From the IMG/VR virus record IMGVR_UViG_3300009605_000001: a stretch of DNA of 64,000 bases, one strand, 5' to 3'. The notes under the pieces were generated by a model. It was given only the letters and a program-made list of their open reading frames with translations. It was not told the origin of the DNA and ran no database searches. A program made the translations under genes and the position numbers. Below are positions 35,516-53,900 of the stretch, one piece after another. Position 1 is the stretch's first letter, and each line of letters starts with the position of its first letter. This stretch comes from an uncultured virus (IMG/VR IMGVR_UViG_3300009605_000001). Lineage: Duplodnaviria; Heunggongvirae; Uroviricota; Caudoviricetes.

Positions 35516-35601
35516 AGCCCCGTGGGAATCGAACCCACTAGTCTTTAGTTTTTAGGCTCTACGTCACCCTACTTACCCTAGACACGTAGAATGTAGTCAC
35601 C
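35516..35601 (-). ncRNA. tRNA-like structured RNA (non-canonical)
   Basis: Perfect T-arm GTGGG-TTCGATT-CCCAC; short closing stem GCCCT/GGGGC; internal stem TCTACGT/ACGTAGA; no canonical anticodon arm. Confidence 0.4.
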
Positions 35602-35716
35602 TCGACAGGGCATTAGATTGTTCCAGTGTATTACCAGTTATACTACATACGCGACGCGCGTAGTACATTACATACTATATTTCGCCATATGAACGGGAGT
35701 CGAACCCGTATCTCTG

Positions 35717-35788
35717 GAATGTTAGAGTAGTTTAGTGTCATGAGGCTTATATTGCCTTCCCATAGAGTTACCGCTCTTACTCAGGACA
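35717..35788 (-). repeat. Structured repeat, copy 1
   Basis: About 72-nt near-identical copy of 36481-36553. Confidence 0.85.
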
Positions 35789-36089
35789 AGTATATCGACC
35801 CATCCCGAAGGTTCCCGCCAAGGGTAGTGGCGCTATCATTCCTTATAAAGATGACACATTTGCTACTCTTGGCTGCATCTAAACCTCAACCTAGCCCCTT
35901 CAACCGTCCAACATTACTAGGCATGTCTATATAGTTCATAGTGCAGAGGATTAGGCTACACAACCGTCAGGGGTGGCTCAATTAGTCTCACTTGGCTAGC
36001 ACAATGCAAGCCCTAATGATACATCACATGAAGCGGTCTATGGCAGGGTCATGACTCCCTACATCCCTTTGTTCTCACACGTGTAAAAA

Positions 36090-36168
36090 TGGAGGCGGGC
36101 GGAGTCGAACCGCCGTCTTCGAGAGTCCGACATGCGGAGTTCTCTCGAATCTAAACCAAATCACCCCC
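36090..36168 (-). ncRNA. Mini tmRNA-like RNA (tRNA-like domain only)
   Basis: GGGGGTG ATTTGGTTTAGA TTCGAGAG-16 nt-CTCTCGAA GAC GGCGG TTCGACT CCGCC CGCCTCC A: G3:U70 pair, A73, stemless D-loop, P2-like stem, GAC linker, T-arm. Confidence 0.75.
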
Positions 36169-36480
36169 CATAACGCGGAAGCCAGCGTGCTACCAGTCAT
36201 AACACTACTAGGCCCAAGGTGCGACCTTGGCGTAACCTAGACAGGATTCGAACCTGTTCTACTGGACTCTCCTTGTTGATTGTTGACCGGCAGGATTCTC
36301 TATACCTGCAACCGAGAGATATCGTAAAGATATGGTCACCTCAGTACCAGCGTGATCCCAGTCAAGGGAATGCCCTAAACCACTTGGTCGTTGGGCAGAC
36401 TACCACAGTCTACGCTTGTGCCTTAGGCTCCGATGTCAGAAGCCTTATTCAGCCACGGTCTACCCCCGTCGGGGTGTGTT

Positions 36481-36553
36481 GAATGTTGGAGTAGTTTCAA
36501 GTCATGAGGCTTATATTGCCTTACCATAGAGTTACACACTCTTACTCAGGACA
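36481..36553 (-). repeat. Structured repeat, copy 2
   Basis: Near-identical to 35717-35788. Confidence 0.85.
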
Positions 36554-36686
36554 GTGGTGATGCATCCCTCCCAATATTTATACAGGTAGGGAGAATCCCC
36601 TGTGATAGTTGTCTCCCCGCATCCTATAGATGCTACGAGGAATTCACAAGGCTCTCCGAAGATAGCCTATACCTCTCTAAAGGGAG

Positions 36687-36719
36687 AAAAGGTGTACCCC
36701 CGTTATCGAGGGGTACACC
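36687..36719 (-). terminator. Intrinsic terminator
   Basis: GGTGTACCCCTCG-ATAA-CGGGGGTACACC followed by TTTTCT on the minus strand. Confidence 0.75.
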
Positions 36720-36751
36720 GAAGTTTGTCGAAAAAAGCAGATGCCCGTAGA

Positions 36752-37030
36752 TCAAGCCTTCTTGTCGGATTTCTCTTCCAACAGGGTAATCTTGATCCCA
36801 CACGCTTCTAATTCCTTCTGAAACGCGGGTCTCTTCTCGCATGCCTTCACAGCACGGGATATCCAACGGTTCATTGCCAGCTTACCCCACTCTTTATCCT
36901 TCACGCCCATGACATTCCTAGCAGAGCACAGGTTATCCTTGATCGCCTTCTCGCTATACTCACGAGTAGGAGACTTCTTGGACCGCTCCGCAGGTGTCAG
37001 GGGTGTGATTTCGTATTCGTATGTCATCAC
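36752..37030 (-). CDS. Hypothetical early protein
   Basis: 92 aa, GGAGG RBS. Confidence 0.65.
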   Translation of the reverse strand: MMTYEYEITPLTPAERSKKSPTREYSEKAIKDNLCSARNVMGVKDKEWGKLAMNRWISRAVKACEKRPAFQKELEACGIKITLLEEKSDKKA

Positions 37031-37237
37031 AGACCTCCGTTAACCTTAAGTCTAACCTCAGGGTACATACACATAGTATGTAAACCCAATAACAATAACA
37101 ATACAGACAAACTAAGCTTCAAACTTAGCTCATACTATACTATTATACCCATGTATACCGCCCACGCACACAAGTGCTGCTCACACAGCAACTTACCACG
37201 TGCCCCGGCGGGCATAACAGAGTAAGGGATACTGAGA

Positions 37238-37341
37238 CAGGCGGAGCCTGAGCTAGTGTCCCACGGATTACAAGGCGGAGCCTAATCTATACTCCACAGT
37301 TGCACATACACGTTCCATATTATATATGCAGGGCGGAGCCC
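37238..37341 (+). promoter_or_regulatory. Three GGC-GGA-GCC triloop hairpins (N4 vRNAP promoter-like; + strand is the template for minus-strand genes)
   Basis: CAGGC GGA GCCTG (37238-37250), AGGC GGA GCCT (37273-37283) and GGGC GGA GCCC (37331-37341) in a non-coding gap. Confidence 0.55.
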
Positions 37342-37385
37342 CTGTAAAGACAGGCCACACTTGACTAATAAATAGTCGGTTCAGA

Positions 37386-37420
37386 AAAGCCCCCCTGAGG
37401 AATCTCACCTCAGAGGGGTG
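37386..37420 (-). terminator. Intrinsic terminator ending the first early unit
   Basis: CCCCTCTGAGG-loop-CCTCAGGGGGG followed by CTTTTCT on the minus strand. Confidence 0.75.
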
Positions 37421-37451
37421 GAGTTTATTCAGTCTTTACTTAAGACTTAAC

Positions 37452-38015
37452 CTACCACTTTACGCTGGCAACTGCCTTCTTTACCTCTTTGTCGGTTTCA
37501 TACAAAACCGCACACTTAGCAAACTCATTATCAAACCGTGATTCACAGGCCTTGATTGACAATTCCTTTGTCAGGCAGGGAATGGATTCGATAGTTATCG
37601 GATAACTCTGTATCAGTGTTTTCCCTCCTAAGGAGAGTCCGCATTTCTCACAGAGCCAAGTCGTAACAAACTTGCCATCAGAAGTCTTCGTTGTCTTGGG
37701 AGTTTCCAGTCTTCGCAGCAATCGAATGTACCGAAGGTTATTCGTGTCAAAGGATTCAATCATAAGATTGTCACCCTCAACTGTGAAACCAAGTTCGTCA
37801 CACTCTTTCTTTACGGAGACTGAATCAAGGGGGCGATAGCCGATGTAGGTGTGAAGCTTATCCACATCCACATTACCATCCAAAGAGATGATCCTAAGGG
37901 CTATGGTGCCTTCCTTGTTATTCACAATAGCATCCACAAGAAACGGGTTTCCGTCGGCATCCACTGCTTCACGCATGACATGCCTAGACGAGTGGTAGGT
38001 TTGTGAACCAGCCAT
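37452..38015 (-). CDS. Hypothetical early protein
   Basis: 187 aa, AAAGGAG RBS. Confidence 0.75.
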   Translation of the reverse strand: MAGSQTYHSSRHVMREAVDADGNPFLVDAIVNNKEGTIALRIISLDGNVDVDKLHTYIGYRPLDSVSVKKECDELGFTVEGDNLMIESFDTNNLRYIRLLRRLETPKTTKTSDGKFVTTWLCEKCGLSLGGKTLIQSYPITIESIPCLTKELSIKACESRFDNEFAKCAVLYETDKEVKKAVASVKW

Positions 38016-38135
38016 GATTCACTCCTTTCAATGAAGTATAGCCTACTCCGGGCCATTGACGAAGGCCAATGATGACGGGCTCTCGTCAGAGGGTCGAGGA
38101 CTAACGAGAGCCCGTGGATCTTTGGTCTTCAGTAC

Positions 38136-39968
38136 TCAGTCAATCGTGTCGAGATGGTGCATACGAATCACTGGTGGGATCATCTCAGCAATCTCAGCGT
38201 ATGATGGTCCACTCGGTGGCTCGACATCATTCGCTTCCCACAGAGGAGCCAACGTAGCCTCCATTGTGGGAATAATTCGCACCATGACATTACGAGCATT
38301 CTCAAAGAACCGCCCAACTCGACTTGGTTGAAGTAAGAAACCATCATGGTTGTCAAGTTGATGCCAATCTTGACTTTTGTTTTCAAGATTGAGCTCACTG
38401 TTGAAGTACGAATCATATATCGCGGCGAGGTGACAGCTAATCGATCCGAACATCTCAACCTCAAACGGTGTGTACGTTGCCTTGCCTTTCCTACCATTAA
38501 CAGAACCCCTAACTGTACGCTCTGGTTCTGTTGTCAGGCGGCTATAAGGCATGAAGGGAATTACTTGCCCATCACCACGAATCAACTCAATCATCTTGCC
38601 AGTGGTCTCGACGCAGTGCTCATTGGCATTACGTGAACGTTGTCCGAGAGATCTGATCTCCGGAATAACCTCATGCATAGCCGGAGCACCAACATTACGA
38701 ACCCACTTCTTGGCCACATCATACAGCTCTTCATACGTAACTGCGGCACGGAGTGTGCCCTTCTTGGTGAAGAGATGTACGAAATCGGGGTGTGTGGGCA
38801 CCCAACTCGGGTACTCAACATGGTCTAACAGGTAAACCCTGTCCTCTTGGTACAGCCGTTCCATCTTGTCTGGATCGAGACCCAAGAGGTGGGTTGCCAT
38901 GACAGCAACACCAGCCTCATACTGTCCGCCTCGTGCCAACCGTTTGGCGGTAGTACGTAGCGAATCATCCAACTCAATATCATTATCCATGGAGTTGATC
39001 CACCGACACATCTCGATATATGCGTCTCGCCGTTTGCCTCCGAAGAGATTACCCAGCCGCATACCAGACATACTTTTCTCAATCAACGCCTGAAACAGCT
39101 GCCCCGAACAACCCTGATCAAACTCTGCCGCAAGGGTTGTCTTCCCAGTTTGGGCATACTCTTTGCACTTCAACGCCACGCGAACGAGGCCGTATCCGTA
39201 CTTATCGATACACTGACTCACTGAGCCACAACTGAGAATTGCTTCCCAGTTGTTAGCGTGAAGACCTGCCATGCCATTCGTAATTGACCAGAACACATCT
39301 GGTGTACATTCTTCGGCATTAGCGAAATCAATAAGTCCCTTTGTATGGCTCTCTGTTTGCCATCCACAGTTACTCATATGATTGTATCGCCTTCCACGCT
39401 TATCGATACGCCTTACTGTTGGGTAGAACACTGAGTCGCCTACTCGCTTCAGTTCTTCAGCTACAGTTTCGAAACGTTCTGCATAGGCTCCACCATCCTT
39501 CGAATGGAATGCATCTGATCCCATCCATCCTTCAAGAAGCTCCATGCTGTAACGAAGCTGAGTATCAGAGGTCCACTGCATTGACTCTGTCATACGATCG
39601 CAGATCGGCATTACATTACTCGAACACCGAGTAACCTCAGGAGCCCAAAGGCCCGTCAGCTCTCGCCGTTCCGTCTGGATAATATGCTCTCGGTGTGGGT
39701 ACTCTGTCTGTTGCTGCCCAATGTAGAACTTACAGCAACTCTTAGCAATCTCGTGTTGCTGATCGTCTTCATCAGGGAACTGACGCTGTAACTCTTTGAA
39801 CTCCTGCGTTCCTTGCAGTTCCAGTTCTTGATGTGCAGGAATTACTAAGCGATCCACAGCATCTGACCCATCCCAACTGGAGGGCTTAGCGTGATATAGC
39901 ACACGCTTTACTAATTCCGAATCCCCCTCGACCAAAGGATTCACTAGGGTTGTGTTATCATATTTCAT
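38136..39968 (-). CDS. Divergent, N-terminally short single-subunit RNA polymerase homolog (RNAP-2)
   Basis: DKRGRRY, KGLIDFA, motif A FDQGCSG, DAY, motif B RTTAKRLARGGQY (K+8=Y) and motif C NHDGF, in T7 order; likely start MKYDN after AGGAG (about 610 aa). Confidence 0.85.
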   Translation of the reverse strand: MKYDNTTLVNPLVEGDSELVKRVLYHAKPSSWDGSDAVDRLVIPAHQELELQGTQEFKELQRQFPDEDDQQHEIAKSCCKFYIGQQQTEYPHREHIIQTERRELTGLWAPEVTRCSSNVMPICDRMTESMQWTSDTQLRYSMELLEGWMGSDAFHSKDGGAYAERFETVAEELKRVGDSVFYPTVRRIDKRGRRYNHMSNCGWQTESHTKGLIDFANAEECTPDVFWSITNGMAGLHANNWEAILSCGSVSQCIDKYGYGLVRVALKCKEYAQTGKTTLAAEFDQGCSGQLFQALIEKSMSGMRLGNLFGGKRRDAYIEMCRWINSMDNDIELDDSLRTTAKRLARGGQYEAGVAVMATHLLGLDPDKMERLYQEDRVYLLDHVEYPSWVPTHPDFVHLFTKKGTLRAAVTYEELYDVAKKWVRNVGAPAMHEVIPEIRSLGQRSRNANEHCVETTGKMIELIRGDGQVIPFMPYSRLTTEPERTVRGSVNGRKGKATYTPFEVEMFGSISCHLAAIYDSYFNSELNLENKSQDWHQLDNHDGFLLQPSRVGRFFENARNVMVRIIPTMEATLAPLWEANDVEPPSGPSYAEIAEMIPPVIRMHHLDTID

Positions 39969-40091
39969 GATAAACACTCCTGTGTGAGGGATTCTAAGGA
40001 TGACAGTACAAACACTCATCCTATAAAAGTGTCAAAGGCCTCCTCCGACCCGAAAGCCAGAGGAGGTATACTTCTCTTCTTCCAGCATTAC

Positions 40092-40607
40092 TCACTTGGA
40101 ACGCATGTTGTACCACATTCCAAAGTGTGAGTTAGCATCTTCCAGATCCTTCCACATCCAGTAGTCACCCTTCGCCTTGAGTACCAGATCTTCGAGGATC
40201 TTGATATGGATCTCTTTGGGTGACCTCTTATCCTTGAGACGGCATACATCTAGCAAATTCTGGATGTGCCGGGGCGCATCGTTGGCCGGATCACCCTTAA
40301 GGTGCTCCATCAGTCGCCAAGCAAACTGGTCTGCAACATCTTCTGCCGTCTTGTACGTGAAGTGACCAAAGTGAAGTTGCTGCAAGTTGTCACGAGTACC
40401 TGTAGCTATCCACACCCATAGCCTGAAGAAGGCCTCCAGAACCTCTTCGAGGGTTGTATCTTCCTCGAAGATAGAATCATGAAGTAACCGAATCTTCATA
40501 AGATAAGCGTCAGAGTCTACAGTTCCATCGGTGCCAGCGATAGCTTCCTTGACCCTCGCAAGGTCATCGGGACTATGCCAACAATCGAGTAACATATCGC
40601 CACTCAT
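40092..40607 (-). CDS. Hypothetical early protein
   Basis: 171 aa, AAGGAG RBS. Confidence 0.75.
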   Translation of the reverse strand: MSGDMLLDCWHSPDDLARVKEAIAGTDGTVDSDAYLMKIRLLHDSIFEEDTTLEEVLEAFFRLWVWIATGTRDNLQQLHFGHFTYKTAEDVADQFAWRLMEHLKGDPANDAPRHIQNLLDVCRLKDKRSPKEIHIKILEDLVLKAKGDYWMWKDLEDANSHFGMWYNMRSK

Positions 40608-40714
40608 AACTAACTCTCCTTGTGTTAGAGGTATGATTTACATCATCTCTGAATAGGACACACGGGATTTCTCGCCGTGTGTCCGTTTGGTTGTTAAGTC
40701 CAGTTAAGGACTGA

Positions 40715-40924
40715 CTAGCTCACACGGATCACGGTGACATGATCCAGATGAGTAGCGAGTTCGCCTTCCCAGCTTGTGAGAAGCCGACGGTTACGAGGAT
40801 AAGGATTGCCGAGCACGGTGTCAATCGCACGTGCCGTGAGCTGCTTGTCATCCTCAGTGATACCTTCAGCGTTCTTATCTTCTGGGGAAGGTGGAACCCA
40901 GAACCTTCGGGGGGGGGCGGTCAT
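40715..40924 (-). CDS. Hypothetical early protein
   Basis: 69 aa, GAGGAGG RBS. Confidence 0.65.
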   Translation of the reverse strand: MTAPPRRFWVPPSPEDKNAEGITEDDKQLTARAIDTVLGNPYPRNRRLLTSWEGELATHLDHVTVIRVS

Positions 40925-41123
40925 AATGACCTCCTCGTGTTAGAGTTATGACCTACGCAGGTCATCTCAAAAGTCAGCACCACACCTTACGGCGAGGGCT
41001 GGTACACTGAGACAATACTAAAACCACTCTTCCCGACTTCCCCTCCATGAGAAGCATGGTAGTACTCTCTTAAGTCTCTCCGGATACCAGCGGTACCCGG
41101 AGAGGTAACTCGGCGTGATCACC

Positions 41124-41459
41124 TCATCGTTGATGGGTGATCAATCCCGACTGATCGGGAAGCACAATCGCATCCCTACGCTTCTTCATCTGGACTTGAT
41201 CCAGAGTGTCCGAAGTTTGAGGACCAACGATTAGCGTAACTGGACTGCGCTTTCTATAGAAACGCTCAGCCACTTCGTCACTGACCCACTGATCCTGATG
41301 CCACCTAAGTGGAACCAGAGTTACAGTCTGTTCAGAACCTTTCGGTTCGTCCCTGACTAAGGAAGCACAGATGTGTCCCCAGTGATGCCAGATCACAAGT
41401 GTCAGCCCAGCTAGTGCAAGCACTAACGCCGATATGTTGTACCATTGAGCATCGCTCAT
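41124..41459 (-). CDS. Early membrane-anchored protein
   Basis: N-terminal TM helix, AAAGGAG RBS. Confidence 0.65.
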   Translation of the reverse strand: MSDAQWYNISALVLALAGLTLVIWHHWGHICASLVRDEPKGSEQTVTLVPLRWHQDQWVSDEVAERFYRKRSPVTLIVGPQTSDTLDQVQMKKRRDAIVLPDQSGLITHQR

Positions 41460-41631
41460 TATAGTACTCCTTTGGGTTGTGACCCCGAAGGGTCAGACCA
41501 TTGGCCTGTCTCATCAGTGCTGGGCGGCCAGTCCCAACAAACACCATACTCCTCAACCATCGGCGGTTGAGGACGTAGGGGGTGTTTCGACTATTCATCC
41601 GCAGTCGAAGCGGTGTCGAGTGCGTCAGGGT

Positions 41632-41817
41632 TTACTTACCCTGTGCAATTGCAACGCACTTCGGACACAGTGGGATCTCGATGCGGTTTCCATCCGCATC
41701 ACAGACAGCCACTGTGATGCACGCGCAGAGGTGACTCTGCTCGTGCGATATGAAGCGCCCGCAATCGGAACACTGCTCTTGCGAGCTAGTATTACGCCGG
41801 ACATCGGATGATACCAT
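41632..41817 (-). CDS. Small Cys-rich (Zn-ribbon-like) early protein
   Basis: CSDC...CPKC; AGGAGGTG RBS. Confidence 0.6.
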   Translation of the reverse strand: MVSSDVRRNTSSQEQCSDCGRFISHEQSHLCACITVAVCDADGNRIEIPLCPKCVAIAQGK

Positions 41818-41926
41818 AGTATCACCTCCTGTGGGTTGTGACCCTACAAGGGTCAGGCCTTAAGGGGATAGGGGGGGAGGGCATACCCTCCACCTCATCC
41901 ATACCCACGGAGAAATTCTCGACCCC

Positions 41927-44900
41927 CTAGTCGATTATTCCCGCATCTCTATCGTACCTTCTTTGTTGTGCCTTACGTTCTCTATCCTCCCATTCGGGAC
42001 TCCCCACAGGAGCTCCTACAAGGCTCTCAGGAGCTCGCTCAGGCCGCGTCTCTCGGATAGCCCCCACTATATCTCGTCTCATAGGACGCGGTGTGGGGGC
42101 AGCAGGAGCCTGTGAGGGGACGCTAGGAGCGGTTGTCTTAGGAGCCGGTGCAGGGGTTGCTGCAGGATTGGGATATTGCATCTTAGGAGTACCTGTAGCA
42201 CCGGAGGGATTATACCCCTGAAGGAGTTGTTGTTGGATTGCTGGTGGGAGGTTTTCAAACTTAGGTTCCCACCCTAGTTCTCTAAGGATTTCTCGTAAGT
42301 CTGCGGCATATTGGGGTAAATTAGATGTCTCAGAAAAAGAACCATAGGTTGCCCATTTTTTGTTTGATGATTTAGCACCCCTGCTCATTGAGTTGTTTTG
42401 CCTTTGCCACTCTTCGCCCATAGCGGAGAAGAATATAATCCTAGTTAAGGCATCGCCTATAACCGGAAGTGTTCTCATTAGCATTACCATTGATGCCCAA
42501 TCTGTATCTTTTTCATCATCTGTCCAGCCATCTATCAGCTTCTTAACATTATACAAGAAGGAGTTCATTGCACCCACTGGTACAAATCCAAAAGCTTCTC
42601 GGTGTGTGTTTGCGTAGATACCTACTACGGTTTCCATAAGCAAGCCTATATATCTACCAAAGTGTGGTAATCTAGCCATCATAAACAATGATTGTTTAAC
42701 CGGGTCTTCTTCCCATCCCTCGATGATATCTTCTAAAGGATATCCTGCAGCTACAAGCAACAGTGACATATACAATGAATCAACCATAGCATATGAAACC
42801 CAATGAAGGGCGTTTCGTCTAAGGCTGAATCTTTGGTTTCTTCGTCCAACTTGCTGAGAAGCAAATAATACAGGATACCGCCTAAAGGTTTCAAAGATAA
42901 GATCCCAACTACTATTGCCCGTAGCTGTATCAAAGGGATTAGGGTCGACTAAGATTTCATGGATATATCTTTTTTCTGCTCTTCTTAATCCTGAAATTAT
43001 ATCAAGGTATTGTTTGTATTCTGGATCTGTAGTAGCCCACTGAGGACCGCCTTCCCATGCCTCACCTTTATTCAAATTAGTTAATAATCCTCCTAAGCTG
43101 TAATACTCATCTCCCTTAGGACTGTTAACCATCTTAGCAAGGATATCTACATTATCGTTTGTCAGAACACCCTCATTCATTAAATACATAATGTTTGCTG
43201 CGTCTGTTCCGGGCAGGCCTACTCTTGACATTAACTTAGAAATAATCTTACGCCCATCTACAGTATCCCATTCTTTAGGATCAACCTGCTTATGTAAACG
43301 CAAGAACTCTTTTAGCTTACTGCCATCTCCACCAACCGTAGCTTGCTGTAACCATCCTCTAAAGATCGTAGCTCGTGAGGTAGCAATCATTTGATGCAGT
43401 ATTCCTGCAAGGTGCATATTACGCTCACCTAACCACTGAGGTAACCTTTGATACCACTCCGACCTTACATCAATATCTGGCCGAGCATAGTCTGGTATCC
43501 GACCTTGGTTAAATATTCGGATAATCTCTGCCATATCTCTTGCAACATTCTTTCTAATGTTAGGATCAAGTCCCATAAGAGGGGCAACGGCAGCCTTAAT
43601 AAAACCACCCATACTACCTCGACCAAGTAGTTGATCAATCATATTCATAGTATTCTCTACTACAAGCGTAGCCATAGTAAGGTTTGTGCCAAAGACAATT
43701 CTAACAACATCTGGAGCATATCTTGTAATAAAGTTTAGAGTTTCATCGGCTGAGTCTCTATTACTTTCCTGTTTACCTAAAATAGTATTATACTTGATCT
43801 CTAATACACCCATTGCTTTAGTAAGTATATCACTGTCTTTAGCACTTATACGACTACCGTCACTATTAAAAAGATTACCCATACCCAGTACATTCCTAAA
43901 GATACCTAACACATCGCCAGTAGTAGCCTTAATCCCATACTTATCCATATACATAGATTGCTCTGCAATCCTCTGCCCAAGATGTTTCATGATACCATCT
44001 GAAATTGTTTCTGGCCCCCAGACAAGCATATCTGCAATCGCAGGATTATTCATAACTTCGTGGACCGGAGGAATAGCCCAATCATTAGAGAAGTATATCT
44101 TTCGTCCAGCACCATTCATAATGTTTGCCACATGAACACTTACAGGACTGCTGATAGTAGGAGACTGCTGTCTTGCGGATTTTCCTTCAACGACCCCAAG
44201 AGTCGCAAGTCTGGAATCTATAGACTGACCTCTAAGTATATCTAGACGAGCTTGATTAGGTTTCTTTGCCTCAGCCCTATACTTACTCCACCAACCAGCG
44301 GTAATTCGTGTGTTTTCACTATTAAACCCCAAGTAGTCAGCACTAAACTTATTCTTTTTGTATCGCATATACCTCATAATTTGAGCTATAGCTGGTATAA
44401 CATAGTTAACATAAGTATTGTGTTGTTCAATAGTAGAAGTTTTATTTGTAAGTAAGCTACGGTATTCTTCATTTGTTTTAATACTTGCAAGTCTAGTTAG
44501 TGTGCTATCATAAGATGTGCTTCTTTCGCTCTGGCGTTGCCTCATTAATTCGGCCATTGCCATAATTTCTTTCCAGAGTTGTGGGTTCTTAGTTTCTAAC
44601 TCAGCTAACTCTTTTAGCCCTACTTCGGGATCAGCCAAATGAGGAAGCTCGCCCATTGCGTATAAAGTATAAGGACACATTCTTCTTGTTTTAAGATCTA
44701 TATTCTGAGATTCCGTAACAATACGATCTCCAATAACCTTACCCATTTCTTCTCTAAAGTTATTATAAACCGGCTGATCTTGTACCTTAGCATTCGCAAA
44801 CATAAAAGGAATAGCTTCATCAAAAGCTCTATCCATAACACCTACTTCGACCCCCATATGGTTTACAATACCTAGTAATGCAGCATAGTTAGTTACAATA

Positions 44901-47900
44901 TTATCTGCTTCCTTTCTTAGCTCTGTGCTGTTTACAAGCAATGCATCCGTGTACTCATACGCTTCTCCTGCCATTTGTTTTACTAACTTAGTCCACACTT
45001 CTTTAGCAAAGGTATCTCTTGTTTTCTCGTTTCCGGCAGTATTCCCTAATACCTGAGTTCTAAATCGAACGGTTGATTCAATAGGCCCAATAATATCATC
45101 GTAGACTCTTTCCATAGAGTTTCTAATCTCAGTAGATATTTGGTCAATCTGCTGAACAGAACCTAAGACATGGGGTATGCCATCCATATTACCCCAATGT
45201 CCTGCCATAGTACTCATTGAGTTGTCAATCATTGTTGATAACATAACAAGTAAAGTAAAGGGAGAATTCCAAGTAGCACCGGATTCAGTACTACCAGTAG
45301 CAAGCATAGTCATAAACTGTTTTACTTTAGAACCAATACCACCCGGCCTGTTAAAGTAAGGAAGCTGCTGTATTGCCTTAGTAGCTTCAGCCATAAAGCG
45401 TCCGTCATTCCCCCGCATCATTTTAGTCATATCCATCAGTATCTGTGTAGCAAGAATCTGTTGATCATGAGGAGTACCTTCAACGAATATTCTCTTAACA
45501 TCAAGAAGATCTGGACCATATGTTTCAACTGAGAAGTCCCCGCTTCTAACACTATATTGATTCTTAAGGTTTTCCCGACCTATAAGGAATTCACCTGTAG
45601 TAATACCAAGCGGTGTTATTTTATTACCGCCAAGAGTATCACGCCTATTCTCTAGCTGACCACGCTCCTTACTCAACTCCTCCCACTCCTTTTCAAACTT
45701 TCCGGATTCACTTTCAGGTGCCTCGGGAGTATAGAAGTTATGGTGTATAGCGTCCTCTAATTCACCCATTCTTCTCTTAACTTCATCAAGAGATTGTAGG
45801 GTAGCTAGTAATTCGTTCTCTGTATTCTCCACCGTAGATTGTTGTTGTGTTCCTTCTGTAGACATATACAGCGGTCCCATATCAGGGTTACCTACATCAG
45901 CTATCGTATTTCTACTTGTCTTGGTTGCATCCTGTCCTAGAGTTCTTCTGATTAAGTTAATGGCTCTTTCGTATTCAGCTGGCTCGGTTGATTTAAAGTC
46001 TGAGAATACAGAAGATACTCTATCTAATATCTTACCAATAAAGGCAAAGATTTTATCAATTATGGTTTGTGTCTTTGCAAAGAATCCCGCTTCTTCGGAA
46101 GTTAGAGGAGTATTGGCTTCAACCTGCCTTAGTAATTCTAAGGAATCGTGTACTAAATGATACCCTGTCAGGGCCGCAATAAACTCTTCGCCCGTAGTAT
46201 CGTTCATAATTCTAGCATACTCATCTTGAGCAGCCTTATTCCACTGGCCGTTATGGAAAGCCATAACAAGTTTCTTCAGTGTTCCGCCACCCTGTTTACT
46301 CCGCTCGCGTAAGAATAACGTTCTCCACTCTCTATAGTGGTATGAATCATTCTCGATAAACATCATTCTACCAATATGGCCAATCTCCTCAGCCACTAAA
46401 TACGCCACACTTAATGCATCTCTTCGCCCAACTAATTGATTACCAATTCTAATTGTATACCTACCACCTGATTTTTCTGCGGATCCTCTTCGCTGTTTCC
46501 CAGAATTATCAACCCACTCACTATCTAAGAATTCAAAATTAACCTCAAGAACCATATCAGGAGCATACTTAAACCACTTACCAAGAATTGCTCTTATCAT
46601 TCTAGCTTGAGCCTCAGAAAGGCGACCACCGTCAACAGCCTCTTTTATCTTAAGGGATAGTTTACCCAACTCAGGAACAGCAGATGAGAAGTTATCGTGA
46701 TTTCGAAGATCTCTGCTTTTAAGATGCAGCTCATTAAATAAATCCGGATCTCTATCAAACACATGAGTATCTAATACAGAAGCTAATGCCGCCTCTGCTG
46801 AAGAATGCATCTCGGTAGACATATCTTCAATATCATATATCTCCTGCAGATAAGCAAGGAAGTCAATAGTAATATCGGAATCACCAGAAACAGTACGTTC
46901 TCCCTCGCTAATCTGATCTACGTATGATCTAGCATCCCAATAAAAATCATTAAACTGTTGACTATCGGTTGCATTTAGGATTGACATAAGCTGATTAAAC
47001 TCACCCTTAACTCTAAGGTAAGCACTAGAAACATCAGCATCAAACTTTTCTTTTTCTACCGCTGTTTCTCGTGACATCAGGGGGAAGAATACTCTAACCT
47101 CGCCCATCTCAATATCGGGTTGCCGTAACATAAGCCCAAGTATAATAGCTCGTATGGTTGCTGGGTTTTTAATATTCCCATCAGTTAGTTGTAGTGTAGT
47201 TACAAGGAGTTCTTGAATAGTTCTATGCTCAAGATCAACCCCATCTGTATACACATCCATATAAGATTCTCTAACCCCAGTTAGATCATGAATAAGACTC
47301 AACCCTCTTGAGTTAGCTTGTGAGTGAGGGCTACTATGTTCCATTTCTATATTCCAAGTTGGAACAATAGTTTTAAAGGTTGTCTTTGCTTTTCCTTTTA
47401 CCGTCCCTCGGAACGGTCCTTCAGAGGCAGCCTCAATATCAACCGGCGTTGTTCGTCTAACTAATTCCTTTAGAATTTTTTCGTTAAACTCTGCATCTTC
47501 TGAAATATATTTGGTATATAGATCCATAGATGCTTCCGGCGATCTTTCATTTATCTCCGCAATTTTTCTTCTAATTGCGTCAGCCTGTATAGGAGATCCA
47601 GCACGCTCAAAAGCTAAACTCAAATCTTTCTCGGTAACCACTACTGGTTCACCATTAACTCGCGTGCCTCTCTTTTTTAAGGCAGCAGCAAACATACCCT
47701 CTTCACTCTTCTCACCGAGTTTTAATCCTTTAAGCAAACTATTTAAAGTCCAGTTTAGACTTTGTGTAATGTCACCACCTAAAAACTTAGAATCAGCGAG
47801 CATGTTGTTTTGCATTAAGTCAATACTAAGTTCAGCAACTATCTGCGCAGTATTAAGATCATTAGCAAGGATACCTAACTTTCTAAGGTCAAAACTATTT

Positions 47901-50900
47901 CCATTATAAGTAACTACCTTGCCTCCCGCTAATAAATGCTGCTTCAACATCTTTAATAAAGCTCTAGCTTCACTTCCGCTTACTGAACGAGTAGGCGAGA
48001 AATGCTTACCCTTTTTAAACCCCACTCTTCCTGCTGCTTCAAGTGTTCTTTCAACACCACCAATACCTACAATACGTTGTTCCAAGTCCATCGTAGTTTC
48101 AATATCAATAGATATAACATTATCTGTATCGTATATCCAATTAGGGTTGCTTTGGATTTCAATAATATTAGCTGCTTCAGCTTCATCTAAACCTAGCGAT
48201 GTTAAGATTTCTACTGCTTTGGTAGGATTATGTTGAGACCACATAGTTCTTTCTGGTGCAGCCCTAGCCATAATATTCATCTCAAGCAAACCTAAACTAG
48301 ATAGTCTCTTCATAGCTGTAGTAATTGGAGAGATTAAAGACTCAATAAAGAAGGGTAATGCATTAGGTCTAAGTCCAGCATCTGGTCTATAATAATTAAT
48401 CCAGTCTACAACTCTAGGTTTAATATTACCAGATGAACGAGAACCATCAACAAGCATATGAGCAACGGTGTGTCCTGATTCAACACGATCTACTATAATC
48501 TCCATTGCTTCACTTAAGACTCTTTCTCTGTTCATCTTTTCAGTTTCACTGTAGCCGAAGTAATCAGCCATCTCTTCAGCATCAGATCGAACTAACTCAG
48601 GCTTACCTTCGGCATTAGATCGATAGCGACCTGTTGGCTTGTTGGTACGCATCGCGGTTTCTATTCTTTCGATAAAAGGATAGTTCTTATGTGACGAAAG
48701 CATCAGTAAAGCACCCATTGGTGTAATACCGAGTTTCATGTTTGTTCCGATTACCGTTCTTGGAACTCTCATAAGCATAGTAAAGGGGCCACCCATAGGA
48801 TTACGTAAAATCATTTTATCAGTACGTTCATCCTTCGTTGGCTGCTGCTGTATTAACTTAACAAGGTCATTTCTACCCTCAACACTCTCTACAATAAAAT
48901 CAAAGGAGAATACAGGATCATTTGCTAGTACAGCTTTCTCTCTAGCTACATTAATAATAGCTTCTCTGTGATCTGGAGGAATAGCGTTAAAGGATTGTAT
49001 ATCTCTTTGATTAGCAATAACTCTTAATTGTTTCTTTAGTGCGGGCTCCTTAACAATACCTATATATGTTTCTATAGCTTCAGATATATACCCATCCCAC
49101 AGTACTCCTACAAGAAACTCCAACTCATCCACAGACTGAACAAGTAAGGGATGTATGGCCGTCTCTTCTAGTTTAATTGTTTCGCCCGGATTAACCCCCT
49201 CTTCAATTATAAAGTGCTCTGTAGGAACTAAGCTTTTTTTCAAAGCTTTGTGAATAAGGGTTGGTCCGGATAAGACAGAGAATGGATTATTCTCCGAATA
49301 TGGACTTGTCAGGATATCATATAGCGTTCTATCTGCTAAGTCTGGATTTAAAATACCAATTTCATGTCCCTTAGTTTCCATAAGTAAGGAAGACATCTCT
49401 TTGTATCTAATATCCCGAGATAATTGGAACAGCGCGTGGAATCCTTCGAGGTATGTATTACGGGCTTGTAGTAGTTTCTCTTCGTTAGTTAGTCCTTTAT
49501 CTCCATAGCGTACAGCAGAAATGATCTGGTCCATTTCATGTTCAAGTTTTTGATCAAACCTATATACTAAATACAAGTACGGTACCATTTCTGGATCAAG
49601 CATCTCTGCCTCAAAGCCACGTTCTATTGCCCACTTACTCATCTTCATCTCAACAACATTAGCTACCATCTCAGGTGCATTAGCATCTAATCCCATAAGA
49701 TAGTCTAGATAATCAGACTTAACATCTGGACCCATTGGAAGAGTTTCTCTATTCCAAGGTTTCTCGAATCCTCTACTAGTTACTGGAATTAAGTGATCAG
49801 GGTTTTCTAAGGGTTGGTCTAACATAGCCGATACTTCTTCAATAGGACTCATCATCTCTCGTTCAGCGGCATGATAAGCTTTATTCTGAAGGTATAGGTT
49901 GCCCTTATTGTGATAAGGCATTCTCCTAGTTTCAGGAGCCCAAGACATGTATCCCCTTGGTTTGTCTGTAGACTCGAATACCATATCTTCTGTATCGTGT
50001 CGTAGTTCTGTCATTGTATGTTCTGCGGACCCTCTGAAGGTCATAGGATGTCCTGCGACTGGGACCAGTAAACCTATACCCTTAGAGAAATAATCTATGC
50101 TTGCTTGGTTTCGAGAACCATCAGCATTCCTAACACTATCTTGTTGTAGTCTTTGCGCATTAGTATGATCTATAGCAGCTTCTTGAGAATGCTCCCACCA
50201 CTGACTCAATACTTCGGCTTCGAGTTCATCCATATTATCTTCAGCTTTATATTTTGACAGAGGCGGCTTCTCGGGTTCTGTAACTCTAAGAAGCATTTCA
50301 TTTCTCATCATAAGAACAGCAATAGTATGATCCATTCTCTTGTGCCACTCCGCTACTTCAGCGTCATTATCAAAATCAACCATTCTCATTATGGGGTTGC
50401 CATATTTATCTAACCTTACCTTCCCATTTTTATCCCTAACCGGAATCTTTTGATGAGGATTATCTTCCATTCTCCACTGACCCAACGGAGATTCGCCTTC
50501 TACGTCTACAAATACTTGCTTACCGTTTACATATTCGTAGGGATTTTCAGACCACTCCATGATCTTTCTACCAATCTTAGCAGGGTTATCCCAATCTTCA
50601 TCTCTAATCTCTTCTGCTACGAAACTTTTAAACGCATCTTGATTAGTTTGGATTCTAGCAAACATCGTGTTGTGATGGTGTCTATTCATATTAGAACTTG
50701 CAGAATAGGTTCTATAACTCTCAAGACCGGGTAAGAAGATTTGATACAGAATAAAGTTCTGAATTCCAAGAAGATCTTCTTCATTAAATCTCTGGTGATT
50801 AGTTGCTGCTTGTGCCTTTAATACATCTACAGCAACTCTGAACCCCGTAGAGTTTACTGTATTTAATGCTCTGAATAATTGATTATGTTTCCAGTGCATA

Positions 50901-53900
50901 CCCTTTGGTTGCAGTAATTGGCCAACCTCTTCCCTTTCAGCTAAAGTTAGCTTTCCTCCTTCTCCCGACTTTGCCCTAGCATCTGCTTTCCTAATGATTG
51001 CGTCAGCTTTCATCAACCTACTATTCTTATACTTCTCCTTAAATGCTTCTACAGTCATCTGAACTCTTTCGCCATCCGGTCCTATCATCATCTCACGCTT
51101 AGCTAACATAGCAATATTTAGATCCAGTTGTCGGCGTAAATAATCTCTTTTCATAGCGGGGTTATTTTGATCTGTTTTCTTAATCTCCTTGTTCCGCATA
51201 CTCTTTACAGTTGAAATCCAATCTGTTATATGCCTATCTGTCATGTTTTCGTGCATCGACAGAATTTTTCTTGCTTCTTCCCGAAGACCCTCAATACCCA
51301 AAGCTACATCAATAACAGCAGCGTTCTCACCCGCTATATGGTCAAATATAGAATGTCCAAACAAAGCCATAACATGTGATATACCTTCAGATTGATCCTT
51401 AAAATTAAAACCAAACTCTTGCCTCAGCCTAGTCAGGATACCTACAAACATTGGATCGGTTTGTAGTTCTACCCAGCCTTTCCATCCCATAGTATATAGC
51501 CTACGCATAACTTCTGGTTTCCAGAATTCACGCATCAGCTTCATCTTCCTAACCATATCAGGATCAGAGCCTTCATTACTAACGTAATCAGTATACTTAG
51601 TATGATCATCGATTCCCAACGTAGCTAACTGATCATAAAACGTAACCATTGGAGAGAGAAGTTCGCCATATTCTGGGTGTGCTAAAGCCTTTCTTCTAAC
51701 GGTTTCAGCAAAACCTAAACCAGCTCTGATATAATAATCTTCAGCCTCAATAGACATATTCATTTTATTCCTTAACTCACCCATAGCGGTAATAGCTGCT
51801 TCGCTACCGAGACTTAGAATCTTAGTTACAAATAAACCATTAAACTTCTTATCCAAGTAAGTCTTTGGTGAAAGGATCCTTTTATAGAACTCTGGGTTTT
51901 CCCAATACTTTGGCCCAAACTCTTTATAATGTTCTTTTGCATAGGCTTGTTCTGCTTCGGTAGCCTGTTGAATAACATCATTGGCTAATCCTTCTAAGTG
52001 CATGTTCATGCTTTCTAAAGCAAGTATAGAAGAAATACCACTCATTGGAACAATAGTAGGTAAGCCTGTAGTAAGCTCAGGGTGTATCATTTTAAAAGCT
52101 GCATCACCCTCTGAAGTATAGACTAACCCCGGACCAGCCGCCCAACGAGCATCATGGAGGAAAGCATAAGCAATATTTGCTGTATCTAATAGAACCTCAG
52201 AAAGAATATTCTTAAGTTCTTCTCTAGTAGTAATTCTATCGTTTAGTCTTACATTAATAATAGGAGGCAATAACCTAGCATCTGGTTGAAGACTTCTAGA
52301 AACAGGTCTACCCGGCACAGCACCATCTTTATCTTCTAGATAAGCGTTGTATTCTATAATATCGTTCTCATCAATCTCTTCTGTAAAGATAAACTCTAAT
52401 CGTTTCCTTACAATAGCATCTTCAATCACAAGAGCAACAGCCTCAGGTCGTTCTGGAGCAAAGGAAGTCATGTGTCCCCGTAACATCGGGTGTGTCCGGA
52501 CTGTCTCTCCTTCTTGCGGCTCATCAAAACGATTCTCTTCTTTTCTTTCTGATCTATATTCTGGGGATTTTCGTCTCTTGGTAACTATTTCTTTAGTTTT
52601 TAGTCTGGTTACTAAAGCAAAGTCAACCAGTTCCCAACCAAGCCGTCTTGCTGGTTGCCAGCCCCGAGTACCGTCCCCCATACTAATGATCTCGTCTCTA
52701 GTAATTAGGGTGTGTTCATTATCACCCTCTGCAAGCCTATCAAGAATTATACTAGCTATTCTATCTAGGTCTTTTAAGTCTTCTGGAATCTTAAAGTAAG
52801 CATATATATCTTTCTTCTGTCTTTGAGATTGCATAAAGAGTACTTCTAATTGCTCAACTATACCCTTTCTAACCTCCTCAAGATATTTCATCTCTGCTTC
52901 TGCTCTTGATTCCGGATCATCTAGATCAAAGGTAATTGTTTGGTCAAGATCGGGAGAAAGATTATCTGTTAAATCAATTAGGAAACCATACTGATTAAAC
53001 AAATCATCATCGACTGCTCTCGACGCTTTCATAAGTCTATCGGTAAACGCAATGGCAGTATATAACCCAATCTTAGATTTAGGATCTCTATCATAAACCA
53101 TAACATCTTCTTCTGTAGCCCTAGTTTCAGCATTCTTTGCTATTACTGCCTGATGTGCCGTGTCTCGTTTTTTGATAAAGGTTACTAATCCTTCATCCCC
53201 CTTGAAGTCATGCAACAGACTTTTTAAAAGGTTCTTAGGAAATCCACCTTCCCCTGCTAAAGTAAGGGCTCGAACATCCTGTACAAACCCCCAATCTGTT
53301 AGATCTGGGCTAACGAGAGTCTTCCCTTCAGCTTCAAGGCGGTTATTGATGCCCGAGATATATCTAAATAATCCTAACTGACCTTCTTCTGACTCGAAAG
53401 CCTTAAAGAGTTTGTGTATAATTTGCCTTGCTTCTAGTTCGTTAATACGGCCATCCTGAAGTGCCGTCCTAATTTCTGCAACCCATGAATTAGCTTCGTG
53501 GATTCTCCACTTCTCCCCCTTTTCCTCAATCCTCTGAAGAACCTTTTGAACCTTTGCATCACCTTCTTTCGCTACAAGTCTCCGTCCTCTAATGCGGCGA
53601 ACTAAGTCTGTGAGAGACTCTTTTGAGATTGCTTTAAGATCACCATTAGCTCTCATTATTCTACGAGTAACTAAGGCAATAAGTTTATCTAATCTAACAA
53701 ACAAAGTATCATACTCAAGACTCAAATCTTCCATCGTTCTGTTACTAGGAAACTCCTCGCCTTCTGCATTAACAATAACTTCTCTAAAGACTGCATCATA
53801 GATACCATCTGGGAGACAACTATCAACAACGAAGATTGGAACCAATCCTACTTCAGGATCTAAGGCTCTACCCCACGGTCCTTCAAGTACAGATATTAAT

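Follow-up and report, generated by a model that had tools for sequence, protein, structure and literature searches.

A tmRNA tRNA-like-domain-only RNA with an alanine identity set in a marine T7-like phage

Analysis of a 64,000-nt stretch of uncultured viral DNA (the window, by which we mean the whole stretch at its full length) revealed a mini-tmRNA gene of 79 nt on the minus strand, read from the sequence at positions 36090-36168. The element is a tmRNA tRNA-like-domain (TLD)-only RNA that carries the alanine identity set and possesses neither a tag ORF nor pseudoknots. It belongs to a mini-tmRNA family that is essentially restricted to viruses, and the stems and the alanine identity set of this family are shown to be under purifying selection. 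Trans-translation is nearly universal in bacteria and the way in which phages handle it is poorly known, which makes a phage-encoded mini-tmRNA relevant.

Structure and identification of the element

All parts of the element lie on the minus strand. The acceptor stem consists of 7 bp and contains the wobble pair G3:U70 plus a second wobble, U6:G67. Its 5' strand (positions 1-7, including G3; 36162-36168) was placed by Rfam alignment, sequence and fold, and its pairs 5 and 6 show covariation across the family; its 3' strand, including U70 (36091-36097), was placed by Rfam alignment and sequence, and U70 is kept in the family. The initial annotation had given the acceptor stem as GGGGGTG/CGCCTCC with G3:U70 and A73; the minus-strand sequence confirms this and contains in addition the U6:G67 wobble, which was not mentioned there. 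The discriminator A73 is found at 36090 (Rfam alignment, sequence and family) and is followed by a 3' trailer of five U (36085-36089). Since CCA is not encoded, the end of the mini-tmRNA would require trimming and CCA addition.

Next to the 5' acceptor strand, a D-loop analogue of 12 nt without a D stem (36150-36161) aligns to the tmRNA D-loop consensus with Rfam posterior symbols from 8 to the asterisk; the D-loop letters conserved in the family are partly fixed by the search pattern described below. The central helix of 8 bp, the equivalent of tmRNA P2a, is formed by a 5' strand at 36142-36149 and a 3' strand at 36118-36125, both supported by Rfam alignment, fold and family pairing. A cap hairpin of 4 bp with a 5-nt loop (36126-36138, from the fold) occupies the site of the mRNA-like domain and pseudoknots of full tmRNA, and an A-rich 5' bulge of 3 nt (36139-36141), matching the interior AA of the family, lies between the central helix and this hairpin. 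The GAC linker (36115-36117; Rfam alignment) stands ahead of the T-arm (36098-36114; Rfam alignment and fold), which has a 5-bp stem and a canonical 7-nt T-loop. The minimum free energy (MFE) fold is exactly the structure described, at -34.2 kcal/mol (z = -2.79), and 2 of 200 shuffled sequences were equally stable. The stemless D-loop, the hairpin-capped 8-bp stem, the GAC linker and the perfect T-arm noticed earlier are all present in the sequence, the MFE fold and the RF00023 alignment.

Comparison with Rfam revealed that the tmRNA model RF00023 matches positions 36087-36168 (minus strand) over model positions 1-374 with 51 bits (E 3.5e-17), the gathering score of this model being 47 bits. 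In the alignment 14 nt stand for the whole interior of the model, 306 positions which hold the resume codon, the tag ORF, the stop codon and the pseudoknots, in agreement with the earlier statement that tag ORF and pseudoknots are missing. The interior beyond the 8-bp helix amounts to 16 nt; the mRNA-like domain is absent and so are PK1-PK4, the remaining sequence being too little to form pseudoknots. RF00023, and not the mitochondrial tmRNA family RF02544, is the match retained for the Rfam clan at the element, weaker matches to families of the same clan being suppressed beneath it. The tRNA family RF00005 shares this clan and matches two other sites in the window, the clan-best match at the element being tmRNA. 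ARAGORN made no tRNA or tmRNA call at the element and found in the window only two ordinary tRNAs elsewhere. The comparison proposed in the initial annotation, with ARAGORN and the Rfam tmRNA model, thus gave silence at the element from the former and a match above the cut-off from the latter, preferred over the tRNA model of the clan.

The family model R1 scores the window element at 80.1 bits; in contrast, a true phage tRNA-Ala (L062), which ARAGORN does call, reaches merely 28.5 bits on R1. A score of 80.1 bits together with stems covarying over 117 listed distinct relatives is far more than chance would give. The TLD-only identity suggested at the outset is therefore upheld by the RF00023 score (51 versus 47 bits), by covariation in the family and by the match of R1 to Mycobacterium phage DS6A described below. 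The idea of a two-piece tmRNA with a separate coding piece nearby was not borne out: the element has the standard order, a hairpin caps its central helix, the permuted-tmRNA model RF04321 gives 13.2 bits versus a cut-off of 47, and no other tmRNA piece was found in the window at E <= 0.1.

With regard to gene-finding programs, ARAGORN overlooks such mini-tmRNA genes or builds false tmRNAs round them, and Rfam labels them plain 'tmRNA'.

Distribution, covariation and alanine identity of the family

In the search pattern used for the family census, the four leading G, some parts of the D-loop, the T-loop and the five final bases were set, with 20-50 free bases between; the invariance of G1-G4, of the D-loop letters so set and of the T-loop is therefore built in. 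A pattern scan of 2.9 million viral contigs identified 57 loci, and the same pattern identified at least 118 loci on metagenome contigs. Among 185,579 bacterial and archaeal species, each represented by one genome, just two loci were found, and both lie on short contigs that belong to metagenome-assembled genomes (MAGs). Including the window, the family comprises at least 178 copies and at least 117 distinct sequences, with lengths of 63-90 nt among the matches listed. A length of 78-80 nt predominates (81 of the 117 listed distinct sequences); seven listed distinct sequences are minimal forms of 63-67 nt, in which the central helix is capped directly, and eight are long forms of 88-90 nt.

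Analysis of 41 distinct viral sequences with RNAalifold revealed 19 consensus pairs, 12 of them with changes on both sides. A second alignment was made to R1 from the window, DS6A, the two genome loci and 80 metagenome loci (84 rows, 67 distinct). In this alignment, which was fitted to R1 and thus favours pairing, 95.6% of cells were paired versus 68.1% in shuffles, and the covariation score was 0.678, compared with 0.150 for shuffled sequences and at most 0.086 when partners were slid by 1-3 columns. All seven modelled pairs of the central helix change on both sides. An ungapped outside-in count over the 117 listed distinct sequences gave the same picture as the R1-fitted alignment: pairs 1-3 of the T-arm are paired in 117/117, each with four pair types, pairs 1-4 of the central helix form in 111-117/117, and pairs 1-8 in 79-117/117. 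The GAC linker, which the pattern left free, occurs in 78 of the 117.

The interior measures 11-18 nt in 102 of the 117 listed distinct sequences, and its first two bases are AA in 83 of these 102. For 81 of the 102 listed mid-sized members the interior is predicted to form a hairpin with 3 bp or more, 17 different stem types being represented. No conserved reading frame was found, the best frame being open in at most 79 of the 117 listed distinct sequences. A small protein was also considered for the element, since a 41-aa ORF overlaps it; this candidate was rejected on the same count, no frame being open in more than 79/117 listed family sequences.

G3:U70 is the major alanine identity element. 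A rescan of the viral contigs, in which GGGG was required at the 5' end and nothing was required of the 3' strand, gave 58 loci, namely the earlier 57 and one whose stored sequence ends before the 3' strand. With the 3' strand free, C69, U70, C71, C72 and A73 are present in all 57 assessable viral loci. U rather than C is kept opposite G3 in 41 otherwise diverged sequences, as expected of selection for recognition by alanyl-tRNA synthetase (AlaRS). CCA is encoded in 43 of the 117 listed distinct sequences, and C directly follows A73 in 87 of them (summed triplet counts). Selection on the alanine identity set argues that charging matters.

Genomic setting, relatives and neighbours

All long ORFs of the window are on the minus strand, and the mini-tmRNA is on the same strand. 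Comparison of window ORFs with PHROGs and Pfam revealed matches to a T7-type RNA polymerase, a family-A DNA polymerase, a primase-helicase and a ribonucleotide reductase, along with structural and packaging matches to portal, scaffold, major capsid, tail tube, nozzle, tail fibre and a small-terminase-like protein. No RNA polymerase of a GenBank isolate is more than 27.5% identical to that of the window. All 24 of the listed sequencing runs containing the stretch are marine, seawater or marine-plankton metagenomes, with no RNA run among them. The phage that carries the element is a marine, T7-like phage. The nearest record is an IMG/VR contig with an identical element. Among GenBank phages there was no DNA match to 3 kb or 2 kb round the element, and a search with the element and three other family members gave no match covering at least 80% of the query.

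In the sense of transcription, the element precedes the RNA polymerase gene by about 6.8 kb, and the stretch that holds it is poor in ORFs and relatively GC-rich. A manA RNA at 36280-36475 (79 bits, Rfam) is found 110 nt upstream of the element. Three orphan T-arm-like hairpins share the same ORF-poor stretch. No sigma-70-like promoter was found directly upstream of the element. A phage-promoter motif was considered for the upstream sequence and rejected: a 55-nt repeat there has just two copies in the window, and multi-copy promoter-like repeats were not seen.

An RNA polymerase 54-100% identical to that of the window was found at 28 loci. Among these relatives the element was found solely on three contigs, 100% identical, that extend far enough upstream. 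Five longer relatives, two of them near-complete (100% and 96%), were searched whole and contained neither a mini-tmRNA nor a full tmRNA; the best R1 scores in these five were about 22 bits, at least one of them on a called tRNA gene. The relatives free of the mini-tmRNA, including the two near-complete genomes, have an RNA polymerase identity of 54-74%. The existence of relatives without the gene indicates that the mini-tmRNA is dispensable for this phage type, and it is an accessory gene of this phage species. Nothing in these relatives suggested that the mini-tmRNA had taken the place of a full tmRNA.

Analysis of partner genes revealed no match to SmpB, peptidyl-tRNA hydrolase, an RF-1-domain protein, AlaRS or an integrase among 20 window ORFs searched against PHROGs and 60 window sequences searched against Pfam. 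Whole-record searches covered 50 of the 57 TLD-bearing viral records, six of the seven left out having duplicate TLD sequences. SmpB was found in none of the 50 records, and an RF-1-domain protein was found in one, about 43 kb from its element. RF00023 scored above its cut-off exactly once per record in 50/50, at 51-79.5 bits, with other matches at 22.3 bits or less; this single pass per record means that no full tmRNA coexists with the element in these 50 TLD-bearing records. Among proteins encoded within 1 kb of 59 loci, no family was common beyond related contigs, the largest occurring at 9 loci with 4 distinct TLDs. Other Rfam matches within 1 kb of 20 diverse loci were tRNAs only, with manA at 0/20, undescribed RNAs being invisible to Rfam. 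Ordinary tRNA genes occur within 1 kb of 16 of the 57 viral loci. Overall, these context results point to a small RNA gene that stands alone and relies on host factors, and count against both a processing signal for a particular neighbour and a decayed remnant.

Proposed function and comparison with known systems

We put at about even the prospect that the element is a functional phage gene whose mini-tmRNA, once charged, vies with host tmRNA for SmpB and stalled ribosomes and so blocks or by-passes ssrA tagging. The mini-tmRNA gene would be transcribed on the strand common to all other genes of the phage, and the precursor would be cut at its 5' end like a tRNA precursor, trimmed, and furnished with CCA by host enzymes. 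Host AlaRS would charge the mini-tmRNA via G3:U70 and A73, and host SmpB would bind it via the D-loop, the T-loop and the base of the central helix, all of which are common with tmRNA. The mini-tmRNA would next compete against host tmRNA for SmpB; after charging, this competition would extend to EF-Tu and to the vacant A site of stalled ribosomes. As the mini-tmRNA contains no reading frame, the products of stalled ribosomes would, according to this proposal, not be ssrA-tagged for proteolysis. That the gene is expressed, that its transcript is processed, charged and bound by SmpB, and that the host is affected, we infer from sequence and structure. Against this proposal stand the relatives that do without the gene and the sequence directly upstream of it, where no sigma-70-like promoter was found. 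If it is true that the RNA acts on SmpB or stalled ribosomes, nature would have provided a small inhibitor of ssrA tagging or a by-pass round it, and a natural experiment on what a message-free tmRNA is capable of.

A further reading, which we offer tentatively and regard as doubtful, is that mini-tmRNAs are charged and ribosome-active and constitute a widespread virus-specific device for 'tag-free rescue' instead of mere sponges, the A-rich bulge and mini-hairpin standing in for the mRNA-like domain. Alanyl-TLD with host SmpB would enter ribosomes that have stalled on broken messages of the phage or the host, such as those left by abortive-infection RNases. It would take over the nascent chain, the ribosome would be recycled and the product would escape the ssrA degron. 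The A-rich bulge and mini-hairpin would replace the mRNA-like domain in accommodation or translocation.

The tmRNA-SmpB complex recruits RNase R. It is rather unlikely that the RNA is a pure SmpB sponge, which would titrate host SmpB, and perhaps RNase R too, with no need for charging or ribosome entry and with the loss of all trans-translation. For such a role speaks the passage in PMC4131195, citing Mao et al. 2009 (RNA Biol 6:355), according to which a similar TLD-like molecule strongly inhibits tmRNA in E. coli whether it can be charged or not, perhaps by SmpB titration. Inhibition with or without chargeability implies that ribosome entry is not needed for inhibition in E. coli, which counts against the charged competitor. 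SmpB is present neither in the window nor in any of the 50 TLD-bearing records, and host SmpB is the only available partner. A sponge has no need of alanine identity, yet U70 and A73 are kept in 57/57 assessable loci where neighbouring stem positions are freely variable, and encoded CCA (43 of the 117 listed distinct sequences) likewise speaks against it. Because the alanine set is kept, the charged A-site competitor is favoured over the pure sponge.

It is improbable that the element acts as a decoy, that is, as a tRNA-shaped RNA absorbing anticodon nucleases, RNase R or CRISPR accessory nucleases, with trans-translation not being the target. The staphylococcal phage protein AcrIIIA1 uses tRNA and tmRNA fragments that bind RNase R, according to the part of PMC11662646 dealing with it, and the mini-tmRNA is an accessory gene absent from close relatives, as is often true of counter-defence genes. 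Nevertheless, the element offers no anticodon loop as bait for an anticodon nuclease, a decoy requires neither the conserved tmRNA-specific D-loop letters nor the alanine identity set, and no conserved protein partner was found within 1 kb.

The location of the element, which follows a manA RNA after 110 nt in a stretch poor in ORFs and shares this stretch with three more orphan T-arm-like hairpins, agrees with a t-element, in which the tRNA-like shape would mark cut sites for RNase P and 3' trimming in a long transcript of a manA-bearing, RNA-rich island. This explanation is very improbable. An acceptor/T minihelix suffices for cutting, and G3:U70, A73, encoded CCA and the tmRNA D-loop would be superfluous. 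In addition, the Rfam matches flanking the 20 diverse loci did not include manA and were tRNAs only, and the tRNA genes within 1 kb of 16/57 viral loci are what would be seen for a stand-alone small RNA gene.

It is hardly credible that the element is a remnant with no function, whether derived by deletion and decay from a full phage tmRNA or copied at an attachment site from the 3' end of host ssrA; full tmRNAs and ssrA fragments do occur in phages (passages in PMC9004378), but both acceptor strands are there and covary, lengths are tight (78-80 nt in 81/117 listed distinct sequences), the interior hairpin covaries, the slid-partner control argues against covariation as an alignment artefact, no integrase was matched among the 20 window ORFs (PHROGs) and 60 sequences (Pfam), and relatives of the phage are without either the full or the mini form.

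The competition proposed above, as well as the identification itself, can be compared with known systems. R1, built without DS6A, matches Mycobacterium phage DS6A (JN698994, 28478-28557, plus strand) once, with 53.1 bits (E 4.7e-9) over model positions 1-78. The DS6A element lies between gp33 and gp34 and is unannotated in the record; 'Mycobacterium phage DS6A (TLD only)' is listed in Table 2 of Hudson, Lau and Williams 2014 (PMC4131195). Like the window element, it is phage-encoded, has the standard gene order, about 80 nt, a G3:U70 acceptor stem and a stemless D-loop, and, as read by eye, a short central helix, an A-rich bulge with a small cap hairpin, a T-arm and no tag frame. It differs in being the lowest scorer of the 84 R1 matches, in having a D-loop analogue of 13 nt versus 12 nt in the window element, in its GC-rich sequence, and in belonging to a siphovirus-type phage of an actinobacterial host, whereas the window element is in a marine T7-like phage. 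On this sequence comparison the window element appears to be of the same kind as the DS6A 'TLD only' tmRNA. The statement that ORF-less tmRNAs are known from mitochondria held; the novelty attached to the element was overrated, DS6A being a phage precedent that R1 matches over its full length.

In the 2025 tmRNA database, as far as its description in PMC11915505 covers them, the class 'Standard, no CDS' has nine of the 97,179 sequences, and one phage form, DS6A, is named. SmpB sequestration or tag-less rescue is essentially a hypothesis already printed for the DS6A phage form in passages of PMC4131195 and PMC11915505, both of which come from the tmRNA database group. We found no description of a mini-tmRNA family beyond DS6A in a literature search of limited extent, and one may be in print.

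Further phage matches were considered as candidates and rejected. Partial matches in Stenotrophomonas phages Marzo and DLP_6 and in Tunturiibacter phage Tunturi_4 are the 3' ends of full permuted tmRNAs, and those in Streptomyces phages coincide with annotations of a tmRNA, a tag peptide or a hypothetical protein. In Pseudomonas phage PA_L9 the R1 alignment shows a 3'-end-like match without a matching 5' acceptor strand, and the R1 match in Vibrio phage 1.081.O is an ordinary tRNA-Ala.

Mitochondrial tmRNA of jakobids and oomycetes (RF02544), as summarised in the relevant part of PMC11915505, likewise consists of the tRNA-like domain only, has no tag frame and receives SmpB from elsewhere; it is usually circularly permuted and organellar, whereas the window element has the standard order and is viral. 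Full bacterial tmRNA (RF00023) has TLD letters and structure in common with the window element and possesses a resume codon, tag ORF, stop codon and pseudoknots, all of which the window element is without. Two-piece (permuted) tmRNAs, for example those of the marine phage Melnitz (PMC9004378) and of Stenotrophomonas and Tunturiibacter phages, are also phage-borne ssrA-derived genes, and such genes are common in marine phages according to the passages concerned in PMC9004378. The two-piece phage tmRNAs are complete, permuted and tag-encoding and score 79-137 bits on RF04321, whereas the window element scores 13.2 bits and has no tag.

The DS6A-type precedent is thus already known, and the additions of this study are evidence at the level of the family and the marine T7-like setting. 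The TLD-only kind is placed here for the first time in such a phage and in a large virus-restricted family of at least 117 distinct sequences, obtained with one simple pattern, and its alanine identity set is under purifying selection.

RNA elements and repeats around the mini-tmRNA

Analysis of the region around the mini-tmRNA (79-nt gene consisting of the tRNA-like domain (TLD) only; window 36090-36168, minus strand) revealed a manA RNA (RF01745) at window 36280-36475 on the same strand, located 110 nt upstream, with an Rfam score of 79 bits (cut-off 55.2). This RNA was found at none of the eight loci scanned in relatives of the window phage and at none of the 20 other TLD loci checked.

The exact T-loop motif occurs six times in the window (0.03 expected), always on the minus strand. 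Three of these occurrences are parts of two tRNAs and the mini-tmRNA; the other three are orphan T-arm-like hairpins (35525-35535, 35696-35706 and 36244-36254, minus strand), which share the ORF-poor stretch with the mini-tmRNA and received neither an Rfam nor an ARAGORN call. By eye, the hairpin at 36244-36254 is part of a larger stem with a U-rich run immediately after it, an arrangement that resembles a terminator. A 55-nt direct repeat is present in the window as two copies only (35717-35771 and 36481-36535; 91% identical), and on the minus strand the manA RNA comes immediately after one copy and an orphan T-arm-like hairpin immediately after the second.

GC-rich island and large ORFs

Window positions 36001-42000 form a GC-rich island (GC 0.48-0.51 against 0.37-0.44 elsewhere), which takes in the RNA-rich stretch and several ORFs without a family match; this would fit an accessory region that was acquired separately. 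A small ORF of 92 amino acids was identified at 36752-37030 on the minus strand, with a near-consensus sigma-70-like promoter (11/12; 37319-37348) about 290 nt ahead of it, a Shine-Dalgarno-like GGAGG upstream (by eye) and a strong terminator-like hairpin (36691-36719) downstream. This ORF and its promoter-like and terminator-like signals limit the truly ORF-free stretch to the region from about 36690 down to 35540. A match to the type II hammerhead ribozyme at 41500-41592 on the minus strand is barely above the cut-off (39 bits against 37; E 2e-4).

The T7-like genome measures about 64 kb and has two large ORFs on its minus strand, a giant ORF of 5359 amino acids (41927-58006) and a 1430-aa ORF (58045-62337) that precedes it in the direction of transcription, and both are located upstream of the early region and the RNA polymerase. 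Neither ORF has a Pfam match above threshold; the sole Pfam trace in the giant ORF is a sub-threshold RNase_H_2 match, and the PHROG scan, which covered the 1430-aa ORF, gave no match for it. One relative's complete genome, which carries terminal repeats, has a length of 63,982 bp.

Acceptor-stem variation and annotation of TLD-only genes

Among the 117 distinct sequences of the TLD-only family, 14 (for example those of loci L003 and L048) form a subfamily in which non-standard combinations, U:C and G:A, face each other at pairs 5 and 6 of the acceptor stem. Pairing there may be restored by a bulge or by shifting the register by one base. ARAGORN called TLD-only genes correctly at none of 60 loci. 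At three viral loci (L002, L004 and L029) it assembled spurious long tmRNA genes, whose tag peptides are implausible, by joining the true 3' end of the TLD to an unrelated upstream piece, and at L004 it additionally made a false tRNA-Val call. ARAGORN output at TLD-only loci is an annotation trap.

Comparison with GenBank phage records

In Vibrio phage 1.081.O (MG592456), ARAGORN called a tRNA-Ala(tgc) at positions 551-626 of the compared locus, a site without annotation in the record, and assigned the adjacent tRNAs to the other strand than the annotated one. The score of this tRNA-Ala on R1, the family model built from mini-tmRNA relatives, was 28.5 bits, which indicates the extent of cross-reaction of the model with true tRNA-Ala. 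The cultured soil phage Tunturi_4 of Tunturiibacter (PP885687) carries a full tmRNA in permuted form (79 bits with RF04321, the permuted two-piece tmRNA model). A few bases before the start of this tmRNA, a gene ends whose annotation reads 'RF-1 domain peptide chain release factor'; together, the two may represent a phage-borne rescue module.
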